A stretch of 45,844 bases of DNA from Myxococcota bacterium. GTDB lineage: Bacteria; Myxococcota; XYA12-FULL-58-9; JALHOP01. A model generated the notes under the pieces. It was not told where the DNA came from, did no database searches, and saw only the letters and a list, made by a program, of their open reading frames with translations. The translations under genes were made by a program, and so were the position numbers. Positions 34,933 to 45,147 of the stretch are shown piece by piece. Position 1 is the first letter of the stretch. The number at the start of each line of letters is the position of its first letter. The stretch is taken from contig JBGGMJ010000203.1 in assembly GCA_041288095.1 (NCBI GenBank), forward strand, positions 1 through 45,844, given 5' to 3'.

Positions 34933-34963
34933 CGTTCAGCCGAATCAGATGTTCGGCTGAACG
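34933..34963. terminator. Perfect 12-bp hairpin between convergent genes (possible bidirectional terminator)
   Basis: CGTTCAGCCGAA-N7-TTCGGCTGAACG; the loop contains the stop codon of the 34945..36066 gene; no U-tract. Confidence 0.5.
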
Positions 34964-36066
34964 TAAACATTCACCTTGGGGCGAGCGGCATCCGTGAGCT
35001 CGACGCCGACACCGTGCAGCGGGTAACACTGCAATACGGGCGCCTGCGCATCGAGCGTCGCGAATAGCTCGCGCACGGGCTCGCCCGGGTAGCCCCAGCG
35101 CTCGATCATGCCCACGACCTGCTCGCCATGCTCGGCCCGCACCGCCTTGCCCTGGAAGAAGGTCGTGACCTTGAGCGTCGTGGGTCCGCTACCGCGGATG
35201 GCGAACGCCACCTCGCAATCACTCGACGACGCGTCCGATTCGGTGGCCTCGATGAGCTCTCTCGCGTGCTCGAGGCGGCCCTCGGCGATGCCACGCCGCA
35301 CCAAGTCTTCCATGAAGCCGACGGCTTTGGTGCGCGGCGCGTGGACGTACATCTTCACGCGGCCATCTTCATCGGCGAGATCGACGCCGAGACCCGTGAA
35401 CCGCGTGTCGCCGTTGGTCTGGTAGAGCGCGTCGTAGATGCCGGCGTTGCGCTCGGCGTCATTCAAGCCGCAGAGCTCGAGCACCTTCATCACCTTGTCA
35501 CGATGGGGCACCGACGTGTCGAGCCGCGTGTTGAAGTAGAGCTTGAGCTCCACGTCGTCGCCGCGTGGAACGACACCGACGAGCAGACCTTGAGCCAGCG
35601 CCGAAAATTCGGTGAGGCGATCGAGATTAGGAAAGACGGTACGAAAGATGTCGGCGGTCAGCTCGGCCTGCGCGTCGCCACCACCGGACTCGAGGTGGAA
35701 CTGCAGCGTGCCGCGCAACAACATGGTGAGGGCTTCGACGAGCGTGCTGCTGGTGCCGCCCTGCGTGAGATAGGCGAAGCCGCGCGGGCCGTCGCCGGCG
35801 AGCGTCAACACCATCTCCATGATCGCTGGGAGGCCAGACATGATCTGCTGCGCGATCCCGACGACTGGATCGAGCGGTCTGTCGCTCGCGCCACCGATGC
35901 GTTTGCCGAGCCGCTCGCGCACGAGCTTGTAGCGTTCGACCTCGCGCTCGGCATCGCCGCCGCACATCCGCGATAGCGCACGCACGGCCGCCTCGGCGCG
36001 CGCGTCGTATGTCGACAAGGTGTGTTTGGGCATCGCCTGCTCGATCAGGCGGGCGATCTGGCTCAC
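34945..36066 (-). CDS. Hypothetical protein resembling ABBA-fold (DMATS/LynF-like) prenyltransferases
   Basis: Repeated beta-hairpins LVGVV..-ELKLYFN, FTGLGVDL-RVKMYVH, EVAFAI-TLKVTTF, HGVGVEL-KVNVYVQP separated by helix pairs. GTG start overlaps the upstream TGA. The CDS is secure, the family call is tentative. Confidence 0.55.
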   Translation of the reverse strand: MSQIARLIEQAMPKHTLSTYDARAEAAVRALSRMCGGDAEREVERYKLVRERLGKRIGGASDRPLDPVVGIAQQIMSGLPAIMEMVLTLAGDGPRGFAYLTQGGTSSTLVEALTMLLRGTLQFHLESGGGDAQAELTADIFRTVFPNLDRLTEFSALAQGLLVGVVPRGDDVELKLYFNTRLDTSVPHRDKVMKVLELCGLNDAERNAGIYDALYQTNGDTRFTGLGVDLADEDGRVKMYVHAPRTKAVGFMEDLVRRGIAEGRLEHARELIEATESDASSSDCEVAFAIRGSGPTTLKVTTFFQGKAVRAEHGEQVVGMIERWGYPGEPVRELFATLDAQAPVLQCYPLHGVGVELTDAARPKVNVYVQPNI

Positions 36067-38177
36067 TTGGACCGCGACATCGCGAGCAGCTGGACCATCT
36101 GATTGAACAGGCCCTGCGCCTGCATGTAGTTCGAGCGAATGCGCCCATCCACCTCGGAGGCGCCGCGCTGCGCCGAGGAGACGAGCTCGGCGTTGATCTT
36201 CTCGAGCGCCGCCCGCAGGTGCTCGGAGACATTACCGACCAAGCCGGCGCCGGGCATCTTGAAGCCCTGCTCTTGTCCCTGACCTTGCTGACCACCGGGG
36301 CGTTGCTGACCACCAGGGCGTTGCTGGCCACCGGGGCGTTGCTGGCCACCGGGGCGCGCCGCGGCTGCGGGGTCGGCGCCGGGCTCAACGGACTGCGGCT
36401 GCGGTCCACCCGCGCGCGGTTGTCCTGGTCGTGTTTGGCCGGGACGGGTCTGCCCGGGTTGGTCACCGGTGGCGCTGTCAGGCGAAGGCACCGCGCCTGC
36501 TTCCCTGGCATCGGCTCGGCCCGTCTGCTGTCCGCCCGGCGTCTGTTGTCCGCCGGGTGCTTGCGTCTGCCCACCAGGCTGCTGCGACTGGCCCTCTGAT
36601 TGCTGTGACTGGCCCGCCGATGCCGCGGCGTCCATCACGCCCTTCATGGCGTTACCGAGCTTGAACGCTTCTTCGGCGCGCTCGAAGGCCTGGTTCATCT
36701 TCTCGATGGCGATCTTCGCCTTGATGCCTTCTTGCGCGAGCTTGTGCATCGCGTTGCGCAGCTCTTTCATCAAGCGGCGCGCTTCGGCTTCGTCCTTCTG
36801 GAACTGGAACATGAACTTCACGAAGAAGGCTTCCCAGTTGAAGTGCATGCCGTCCCACGACGTCGTCGTGTCGAAGCCGCCACCGTTGTTCACGAATGGC
36901 TCGTCGGTGGTGATGTCCGTCGCGCGCATGGCGCGGCCGCCCGCGCGAGCGCCGCGCAGAGACAAAGTGGCGCCGCCGCTCGATGATTCATTGGGCATGC
37001 GCGCCGGGGCGCGCGTGCTACGGCCGCCGACTGGGCCACCGACGTTGCCGGCATTGCCACCCGGGCGTGGACCCGTCGGCACGTTGGGTCCGCTCGGCGG
37101 GCCGGGCCTCGTGGGAACGGTTGGACCGGTCGGCGTAGGCGTCGTGGTCGTGCTCAGTGTCGTCTGTCCGAGCGGCGTCCGCCCCGAGGCGTCCGTCGCT
37201 TTGGCGTTCGCCATCACCGTCCGCCCAAGCGGAGTTGCTTCGCTGTGGACTGGCGCCTTCGGCTGCTCGCCTTTCGTCGGCTCGCGTTTCTTCGGCAGGT
37301 GGATGGTGTTCTGCGTTGGTGGCCGCGGCACCGTCGGATCGCCGTCCTGTGGCGTGACCGGTCGCCCACCTTCTTCGCCGGGACGCTGCGGGCGCTCTCC
37401 GGTCGTAGGCTGACCCACGGTGGGCCGGTTGAGCGTCGGGCGGTCCGGTCTGTCGTCCGTTGTCGGCCTCCCGGTCGTCGGCCGGTCGGTCGGCATGTCG
37501 CCGGCCTCGCCGCCCTCGGGCAACGGCCGCTGCGGCTTGTCGTCCGCCGAGCGCAAGCCGCGGCTCTGGCCACCGTCGGCGAGCTGACCTTCGTGGTGGG
37601 CGCCTTCGCCTTCTTGTCCGCCATCGCGGAGATGCGATTCGCGCGGCTGCGTTGGCGGCCGCGGCACCAAGGTCTCCGAGTAGTGCTCGACGGTGAGCGG
37701 CGAGGCTTCCGCCGAGCTGGGCTTCAAGAAGCTGAAGATCTTCTCGAGGACGTTGCTGGCGGCCTCGGCGGTGATCGGCGCGTGCGTCGCCGGCGGCAGG
37801 ATGGTCGGTGCGTTGGGGTCGCTGGTGACGAGCTGCCGCTGATGGCGGTTCAGCCCATCGGCGGTGTTCATCTCGCGGGGGCGGCCGATGAGCGTGCCCT
37901 TGTCTTCGGTCTTCTGCGCCTGCAGCGTCTCGCCGGCTACGGTTTTCAGAAACGTCTGCTGGGACTCGGAGGCGCGCTCGGCGCGCTCTGCTCTTGCCTG
38001 CTTGCGCAGCACCATGGCGCGCAGCACGTCTTCGTCGACGGCGCGGCCGGTACGATGCTTGATGTGCTCGCCAAGCGCCTCGACCTTTTCATCGAGCTTG
38101 GACTTCTTGGCGGACCCGTCCGTGCCAGCCGCTGGGGCCAGCCCTTCTCCGGTACGAACGGTGATGTTGTCTGCCAT
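36063..38177 (-). CDS. 704-aa low-complexity (P/G/Q/T/R) protein, candidate T3SS-secreted substrate
   Basis: Strong RBS GAGGAGG; no signal peptide; disordered repeats around helical FNWEAFFVKFMFQFQKDEAEARRLMKELR... and C-terminal amphipathic NYMQAQGLFNQMVQLL. Confidence 0.8.
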   Translation of the reverse strand: MADNITVRTGEGLAPAAGTDGSAKKSKLDEKVEALGEHIKHRTGRAVDEDVLRAMVLRKQARAERAERASESQQTFLKTVAGETLQAQKTEDKGTLIGRPREMNTADGLNRHQRQLVTSDPNAPTILPPATHAPITAEAASNVLEKIFSFLKPSSAEASPLTVEHYSETLVPRPPTQPRESHLRDGGQEGEGAHHEGQLADGGQSRGLRSADDKPQRPLPEGGEAGDMPTDRPTTGRPTTDDRPDRPTLNRPTVGQPTTGERPQRPGEEGGRPVTPQDGDPTVPRPPTQNTIHLPKKREPTKGEQPKAPVHSEATPLGRTVMANAKATDASGRTPLGQTTLSTTTTPTPTGPTVPTRPGPPSGPNVPTGPRPGGNAGNVGGPVGGRSTRAPARMPNESSSGGATLSLRGARAGGRAMRATDITTDEPFVNNGGGFDTTTSWDGMHFNWEAFFVKFMFQFQKDEAEARRLMKELRNAMHKLAQEGIKAKIAIEKMNQAFERAEEAFKLGNAMKGVMDAAASAGQSQQSEGQSQQPGGQTQAPGGQQTPGGQQTGRADAREAGAVPSPDSATGDQPGQTRPGQTRPGQPRAGGPQPQSVEPGADPAAAARPGGQQRPGGQQRPGGQQRPGGQQGQGQEQGFKMPGAGLVGNVSEHLRAALEKINAELVSSAQRGASEVDGRIRSNYMQAQGLFNQMVQLLAMSRSK
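36285..36356. repeat. 18-bp coding tandem repeat x4 (RPGGQQ)
   Basis: TTGCTGRCCACCRGGGCG at 36285, 36303, 36321, 36339. Confidence 0.9.
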
Positions 38178-45069: not shown

Positions 45070-45117
45070 AACCCCTGCTCCTTAGACCGTCCGGTGGCGC
45101 TTGACGGACCCTGGCTC

Positions 45118-45147
45118 TACTTACACATGGCGATGCGGGCCAGGTTG
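45118..45147 (-). promoter_or_regulatory. Motif B promoter
   Basis: Minus strand CAACC-N15-TGTGTAAGTA, 48 nt upstream of ATG 45069. Confidence 0.6.

Follow-up and report, generated by a model that had tools for sequence, protein, structure and literature searches.

How does a bacterium use the pore-forming parts of a T3SS (type III secretion system) when nothing of the secretion apparatus is encoded next to them? The question is raised by a seven-gene cassette on a 45,844-nucleotide stretch of DNA from a Myxococcota bacterium, which is the whole of contig C203 of genome G000 (5.85 Mb, 90% complete) and is referred to here as the window. A sequence-only reading of this DNA had proposed that the cassette is an expanded translocon module, detached from its apparatus. 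We conclude that the seven genes form a type III secretion translocon operon and, with a probability of about 0.78, that this operon supplies the tip and the pore of a T3SS whose genes are scattered over other contigs of the same genome.

A translocon operon maintained by selection

The ORF (open reading frame) check and the Pfam scan confirmed the layout seen from the letters alone: seven co-oriented minus-strand genes occupy window positions 34945-45069, three of the seven proteins start with MSS, and none of the 43 window proteins scanned belongs to a T3SS core or flagellar family (the scan, run as 13 + 32 proteins, included two secretins from other contigs). The genes for the 704-aa and the 373-aa proteins overlap by 4 nt. 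The proposed lack of Sec signals is borne out by hydropathy, rather than by a signal-peptide predictor, with a hydrophobic N-terminus in 0/7 proteins (best 11-residue Kyte-Doolittle mean over the first 35 residues, <=0.44).

That the seven genes stand together beyond chance follows from the gene order, which the synteny check suggested earlier found conserved in relatives, and from purifying selection on all seven, with ratios of nonsynonymous to synonymous substitution rates (dN/dS) of 0.04-0.40 against three congeners (two for the 704-aa gene and the prenyltransferase gene). Guanine-cytosine (GC) content is even along the window, and its third-position value (GC3) in the seven genes falls between the 15th and 90th percentiles of the G000 genome; together with the order-wide presence of the cassette, this leads us to reject a recent transfer. 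Near-identical contigs were recovered from two soil sequencing runs of one study, either of which could be where this DNA came from, and a close relative from a cave run.

The subunits and the chaperone

The translocon identity and the order tip, chaperone, SctE, SctB, both anticipated by the sequence-only reading, are upheld by matches to the SycD and SseC families above their cut-offs and by AopB as the best PDB match of the SctE family profile (E 8.8e-4). The major translocator SctE1 (41081..42556, minus strand, 491 aa), a member of the YopB/SseC family, scores 42.4 bits against Pfam SseC (PF04888; cut-off 30.2), and 11 of the 16 SctE family members match the same model at E<=0.01. Beside it lies SctE2 (39323..40828, minus strand, 501 aa), a genus-specific tandem paralog with a compact hydrophobic hairpin, which is 50-52% identical to SctE1 across two core blocks, lacks its Ala-rich insert and matches SseC below the cut-off (E 0.0023). 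Since dN/dS of SctE2 is 0.21-0.36, we rejected a pseudogenised duplicate; the tree gives little resolution as to when the copies separated (support for the SctE1 and SctE2 grouping, 76.7/68). The second copy may widen the target range or alter the make-up of the pore.

The candidate minor translocator is a 347-aa SctB-like protein (38242..39285, minus strand), tentatively assigned by its YopD/SseD position, a profile match and hydropathy. It matches NF052420 (SseD) at E 2.6e-5, with a score of 24.4 against a cut-off of 130, as do 2/11 of its orthologs, and its family profile matches that of SctE at 93.8%. These three proteins, described earlier as having a disordered N-half, a coiled coil and a hydrophobic segment, each contain one hydrophobic segment (residues 229-263 in SctE1, 398-420 in SctE2 and 235-260 in the SctB-like protein).

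The 704-aa protein (36063..38177, minus strand) had been taken for a repeat protein, which does not hold for its family: the Gly/Gln/Pro repeats make up an insert found in this genus alone, within a frame that is otherwise conserved. The core of this frame matches the SctB family profile (83%, E 8.7e-6, 65 columns; <=1.2% in 11 shuffled or reversed controls), and searches of the protein gave no Pfam or NCBIfam match, no usable Atlas match, no profile match to SctE or the tip and no hydrophobic segment. We therefore describe it as a hydrophilic SctB-derived protein in which a long insert, variable among genera, replaces the hydrophobic hairpin. Its hydrophilic character precludes the usual role of a pore subunit, and it is likely a co-secreted accessory carrying variable cargo. 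The earlier proposal of more than the usual two pore subunits thus stands within the genus, where 4/4 genomes carry two SctE genes (congener cassettes L019-L021), and fails in 12 cassettes of other genera with a single SctE; the extra gene found order-wide is the hydrophilic SctB-derived one. Unlinked additional copies of SctE or SctB occur in several other genomes.

The chaperone (42681..43814, minus strand) is a tandem class II chaperone of two SycD/LcrH domains. Its ORF (42681-43820) encodes 379 aa from a TTG, and relatives start two codons later, at the ATG at 43814. It matches TIGR02552 over two stretches with 130.6 bits (cut-off 104.8), on which ground we rejected a generic tetratricopeptide repeat (TPR) protein, in agreement with the sequence-only reading. 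The C-terminal half matches the structures of PcrH (E 6e-14) and SycD (4.5e-12), ranked below designed TPRs. In a tree in which one SycD half (G006) is mis-cut, the N-terminal halves are sister to the C-terminal ones (99.3/100), which makes internal duplication the origin of the fusion. As class II chaperones typically work as dimers (PMC13466201), the fused SycD may by analogy be a covalent dimer.

At the SctA position lies a hydrophilic tip- or filament-like subunit of 393 aa (43888..45069, minus strand), assigned from its model and position. The model (residues 150-393; predicted local distance difference test (pLDDT), 90.8) comprises a helical bundle, a long helix, a beta insertion and a long C-terminal helix, a layout that we take to be that of tip proteins, and is in this respect compatible with the SctA topology. 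Weak matches to needle SctF profiles, confined to the last helix, were obtained for 8/73 tip relatives and for 6/44 in a second set.

The cassette thus shares with the Ysc order lcrV-lcrH-yopB-yopD, seen in L099, and with the pathogenicity island SPI-2 of Salmonella, whose order is sseB-sscA-sseC-sseD, the succession of hydrophilic subunit, class II chaperone, SctE and SctB, the SseC and SycD families, and the combination of coiled coil, hydrophobic hairpin and C-terminal helix. It differs from both in its fused-dimer chaperone, second SctE, hydrophilic SctB-derived gene and prenyltransferase, in being unlinked to the apparatus, in that SctC and SctW were not detected, and in a tip of no recognised family.

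The apparatus elsewhere in the genome

The sequence-only reading had the module detached from its apparatus, which is true of the locus but not of the genome. A genome-wide check, in which the lack of any apparatus would have spoken against the reading, found the apparatus on three contigs: C92 carries sctI, sctJ, a FliG-like (K-like) gene, sctL, sctN, sctO, sctP, sctQ, sctR, sctS and sctT, along with genes for a FliA-like sigma factor, a SycD-like protein and a needle-like protein; sctV is on C31, and sctU lies with a SycD gene on C41. Single genome-wide matches for SctV, SctR and SctJ are all on contigs other than that of the window. SctV (850.8 versus 692), SctR (221.5 versus 208.6), SctQ (101.8 versus 100.8) and SctS exceed their model cut-offs, and SctN, SctU, SctT and SctJ fall just or clearly below theirs and above those of Pfam. 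SctD was left unassigned, as FHA domains are abundant and the FHA/YscD search was uninformative. Neither flagellin nor FlhA was found in G000 (90% complete), where the single FHIPEP gene is SctV; FlhA is present in congeners and in several genomes of the order. G000 therefore encodes a scattered non-flagellar T3SS, from which the translocon is detached without being orphaned. Further loci with SycD, tip, SctE or SctB paralogs lie on C181, C10, C210, C82, C94 and C1.

The suspected link to the needle-less T3SS of Myxococcus proved stronger than first noted. The gene order of C92 is colinear with the larger (long) T3SS locus (L079-L080) of G115. This genome from the phylum is closed, measures 9.0 Mb and is taken here to be of the Myxococcus type from its long and short T3SS loci. 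The SctV proteins of G000 and of this long locus are 61% identical and share a clade (100/100), the long clade, which excludes flagellar FlhA as well as the SctV proteins of the Ysc, Rhc, Hrp and SPI-1 types and of Desulfovibrio (single-gene tree of 35 rows, without Chlamydia, from which 24/30 flagellar rows were dropped and to which three rows of family f12 were added). With G115 as stand-in, the likeness to the M. xanthus T3SS* (long locus, mxan_2434-2464) comprises an orthologous SctV, a colinear core, no dedicated secretin, several LcrH-like chaperones and Kil-like genes in the genome. For the latter, a Kil/Tad-like FHA-CpaF ATPase (57%) and a CpaC-type secretin (46%) of G000 (C142:20559-24468 and C29:9764-11206) match a G115 locus. 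Where several papers describe T3SS* as being without needle and translocon (PMC12075869, PMC10433427, PMC10849154), the order studied here has a translocon operon, with its core split over several loci. An apparatus and translocon spread over several loci are likewise described for Chlamydiae (PMC3459982), although these do have a secretin. The system is thus neither a canonical injectisome, for which no SctC above cut-off was found, nor a T3SS*, which is defined as lacking a translocon.

The C10 needle-like gene product matches PF09392 at E 0.023, and 3/60 members of the C92 needle-like family match an SctF profile (best E 0.02); the PDB gave no needle match. The gene that opens the long locus of G115 (L079:15709-16278) has as its ortholog a conserved 185-aa needle-like gene on C92 (L014:4389-4943). 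Judging by sequence, the needle-less T3SS* could carry a divergent needle subunit.

A promoter motif and a candidate sigma factor

Upstream of the tip gene, motif conservation points to a predicted promoter of the alternative-sigma type, AACC-N16-GTGTA (45122..45146, minus strand, site 45126). GTGTA is found within 160 nt (<=160) upstream of the tip gene in 13/13 relatives outside the genus, with both boxes at the fixed 16-nt spacing in 10/13. The tip site ranks second in the genome, in which 206 of 4543 genes (4.5%) make up the background of the motif; among relatives the motif is present in G010 and was not detected in G012. Predicted internal promoters precede SctE1 (GACC-N17-GTGTA, 42636..42661, minus strand, site 42640, score 12.2), with GTGTA upstream of SctE in 12/13 cassettes outside the genus, and SctE2 (two overlapping GTGTA candidates, 40877..40907, minus strand, sites 40887/40881, scores 9.6 and 12.5), the latter kept in three congeners. 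The search for sigma-70 promoters found none.

A candidate reader of this motif is encoded next to the cassette: an extracytoplasmic function (ECF)-type sigma factor (33343..34050, plus strand; TIGR02937, 71.8 bits, cut-off 42.9). Its ortholog (64-98% identity) is present in 8/8 other order genomes searched and adjoins the 3′ end of the cassette, or lies at most one gene away, in L023, L024, L131, L137, L171, L173, L176, L182, L188 and L189. We infer that this sigma factor recognises AACC-N16-GTGTA. Of 22 proteins scanned, a selection made by eye that took 20 from among the 45 best motif matches and added two others, 15 have no Pfam family, and many have low-complexity N-termini, which makes them candidate effectors; the motif in this way provides a candidate effector list.

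The best-scoring promoter of this type in the genome precedes a 95-aa gene of no family within the window (3924-4211, minus strand), a candidate member of the same regulon. A different, sigma-28-like pattern (CAAC-N-CCGATAA) lies upstream of rod and needle-like genes on C92, C10 and C210, a match made with no shuffle control; it occurs at 176 of 4718 genes, including the C92 and C10 needle and rod genes, and would fit the FliA-like sigma factor of the C92 locus and a two-tier regulation.

A predicted prenyltransferase linked to the translocon genes

The last gene of the operon (34945..36066, minus strand, 373 aa), translationally coupled to the 704-aa gene, encodes a predicted aromatic prenyltransferase of the ABBA/DMATS fold. 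Its model (pLDDT 88.4) matches FunA, PriB, CymD and 5/6-DMATS in Foldseek (E 1.6e-10, template modelling (TM) score 0.66-0.69), and its Atlas score is 0.94. Residues E84, K175, Y177, N179, R181, R236, K238, Y240 and K299 are conserved and putatively correspond to DMATS active-site residues; the model has a PT-barrel fold with putative diphosphate-binding residues. Whereas the ten-stranded barrel and the basic and Tyr diphosphate-site residues are common to DMATS-type ABBA prenyltransferases (PriB, CymD, IptA, FunA), the cassette enzyme is only 12-18% identical to them, falls below family cut-offs and has no biosynthetic cluster around it.

The gene is single-copy in 16/22 genomes of the order, with a divergent copy inside the G010 cassette; its neighbour, wherever recognisable, is the 704-aa gene, which G014 has without the prenyltransferase. 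In Salmonella SPI-1, a lipid-transfer gene is also linked to the translocon genes, although there it encodes an acyl carrier protein, IacP, rather than an aromatic prenyltransferase with a putative substrate among the secreted subunits, and IacP-dependent acylation promotes membrane insertion of SipB (PMC5279801). By analogy, the prenyltransferase might lipidate a secreted subunit at one of its aromatic residues, an idea against which we lean somewhat, as its correlation with conserved Trp residues is imperfect. If it does so, there would be two ways of lipidating a translocon, the one found here differing in its chemistry.

Origin and function of the translocon

The tip profile matches 22/22 genomes of the order and 0/179 other genomes of the phylum, and a single SctE query found homologs in 18/21 other order genomes and 0/19 others, with G010 added by a profile; the cassettes of relatives keep the order tip-SycD-SctE-SctB. 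Given this restriction, it is conceivable, if unlikely, that the cassette was taken up horizontally early in the history of the order from a secretin-bearing injectisome and grafted onto a translocon-less Myxococcus-type core, a scenario which retains the translocon function and is silent on the ancestral state. It would explain why the tip and SctE families go undetected outside the order with these queries, why 64 genomes of f17, the family of G115, yielded no SseC match, and why neither SctE nor the tip was matched in the two f13 genomes, whose SctV is the nearest. In 60 kb of the two T3SS loci of G115, no translocator-like ORFs were found. Set against it are compact cassettes of tip-like, SycD and SctE/B-like genes in family f12, which, though divergent, lie beside their own SctV, which branches as sister (99.8/100) of the long clade in its entirety; f10 has cassettes of a similar kind (L123:8435-15033, L124:5643-11825, L128:6550-12957, L125:7164-9311). 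The SctB profile of the order matches these cassettes (E 1.4e-6 to 5e-3, small set), while SctC exceeds its cut-off in 0/5 of the genomes carrying them. The SycD halves, moreover, group with neither LcrH nor Desulfovibrio SycD (short alignment), and GC3 is native.

In the part of their survey that concerns Myxococcus systems, Abby and Rocha (PMC3459982) reported no YopB/YopD homologs, warned that such homologs could be missed and suggested that the translocon might postdate the secretin. Its absence is repeated in later papers (PMC12075869, PMC10849154, PMC10433427, PMC12428579), and the main text of three surveys of Myxococcota or Bradymonadia genomes does not mention a translocon (PMC11821767, PMC11509652, 10.64898/2026.07.10.737566). 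Our literature searches, with supplements and subscription papers such as Thiery 2022 outside their scope, found no published description of one in Myxococcota. What is new here is thus a translocon operon variant in this phylum with an orthologous Myxococcus-type core, the SycD and SctE families being known. It bears on when the translocon arose, suggests that pore parts are older than assumed and points to their loss in Myxococcus. How the needle-less T3SS* manages any delivery is a question that recent papers keep raising, and it becomes testable in an order that combines an orthologous core and a conserved translocon operon with no SctC above cut-off.

Several observations weigh against the operon supplying tip and pore. 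SctC exceeds the TIGR02516 cut-off in 0/22 order genomes (65-100% complete; best 144 versus 238 bits, confined to the C-terminal part), the three secretins that G000 encodes stand in PilQ, GspD and Tad-like contexts, and the genes found do not explain how the outer membrane would be crossed. The HrpJ/SctW gatekeeper (PF07201, one domain model) was matched in 0/5 genomes. PDB sequence searches with two alignments and three fold searches matched the tip protein to no LcrV, IpaD, EspA or SseB family or structure; they returned generic coiled coils only, which is not evidence against SctA. The SctB and needle-like genes match their families only below cut-off, and the canonical P/VxLxxP chaperone anchor does not occur in its exact form in SctE1, SctE2 or SctB; what is conserved, in the SctB-like and 704-aa proteins, is just a related motif, PxLP. 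As for lipidation, the Trp nearest the 704-aa core is kept in 8/11 rows and missing in two prenyltransferase-bearing genomes.

The missing secretin also invites a rather improbable reading, in which the proteins are exported to the periplasm or medium by a secretin-less T3SS or a flagellum and are then either set free as pore-forming toxins or passed on to a Tad/Kil pilus, with no continuous needle. The Kil-like ATPase and secretin matching the G115 locus, the FlhA of several order genomes and the top Foldseek rows of the tip, which are alpha pore-forming toxins (E 0.009 or worse), would agree with it, but the TM scores of these rows do not exceed 0.40 (<=0.40), needle-like and rod genes have been retained, G000 (90% complete) yielded neither flagellin nor FlhA, and G010 (100% complete) keeps the cassette with only PilQ- and GspD-like, and no Tad-like, secretin matches. 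That translocon descendants now build a structure in the envelope of the producing cell itself or one joining kin cells, instead of an attack pore, is very improbable. In its favour, tip and chaperone evolve slowly and are strictly retained throughout the order, which resembles housekeeping more than an arms race. Against it, the hydrophobic hairpins and inserts of SctE and the 704-aa protein differ greatly in both length and sequence, and additional copies of SctE/SctB occur repeatedly, as one would expect of proteins that face a target.

We thus return to a translocon serving the scattered apparatus. Gene families, conservation, selection, the orthologous apparatus and the promoter motif are observations, and the sequence of events that they suggest is as follows. 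The ECF sigma factor would activate the genes for the tip and SctE together with a group of orphan genes that resemble substrates, and the fused SycD dimer would keep SctE, SctB and the 704-aa protein unfolded until the C92/C31/C41 apparatus exports them through a needle of divergent SctF-like subunits. The tip or filament subunit would then dock on a target cell, where SctE and SctB would insert as a pore through which effectors could pass; bacterial prey and microbial eukaryotes are the candidate targets, at roughly even odds. A more far-reaching version, doubtful as a whole, is that of an early-branching injectisome with needle, tip and pore and no secretin, whose translocon is older than the capture of a secretin and is missing from Myxococcus through loss, not because it was never gained, and whose pore or accessory is prenylated by the ABBA enzyme before entering the membranes of prey, possibly bacterial.

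Further loci and neighbouring genes

A second conserved cassette on C181 (30486-36441; L016:13486-19441) comprises SycD, two genes of unknown family, a tip paralog and a 797-aa protein, and a cassette of this type adjoins the main tip gene in L026/L187. An orphan pair of SycD and SctE-like genes lies at C94:672-2386, and an orphan SctB paralog with no hydrophobic segment at C1:18519-19418. Between sctN and sctO on C92 (L012:10570-16788) are an HD-domain gene, a DUF4781/RelA-like gene and a 673-aa gene, possible effectors.

Within the window, a 203-aa gene of no family (45222-45833, plus strand) is divergent from the tip gene and stands beside it in most relatives, and a 233-aa gene with Pro/Arg repeats (34219-34920, plus strand), found only in this genus, separates the cassette from the ECF sigma factor gene. 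A truncated ORF of no Pfam family at positions 1-945 (minus strand) has a Pro-rich, substrate-like N-terminus. The gene pair at 29533-32459 (plus strand), DUF1592/1588/1585 and DUF1552, is typical of myxobacteria and planctomycetes.

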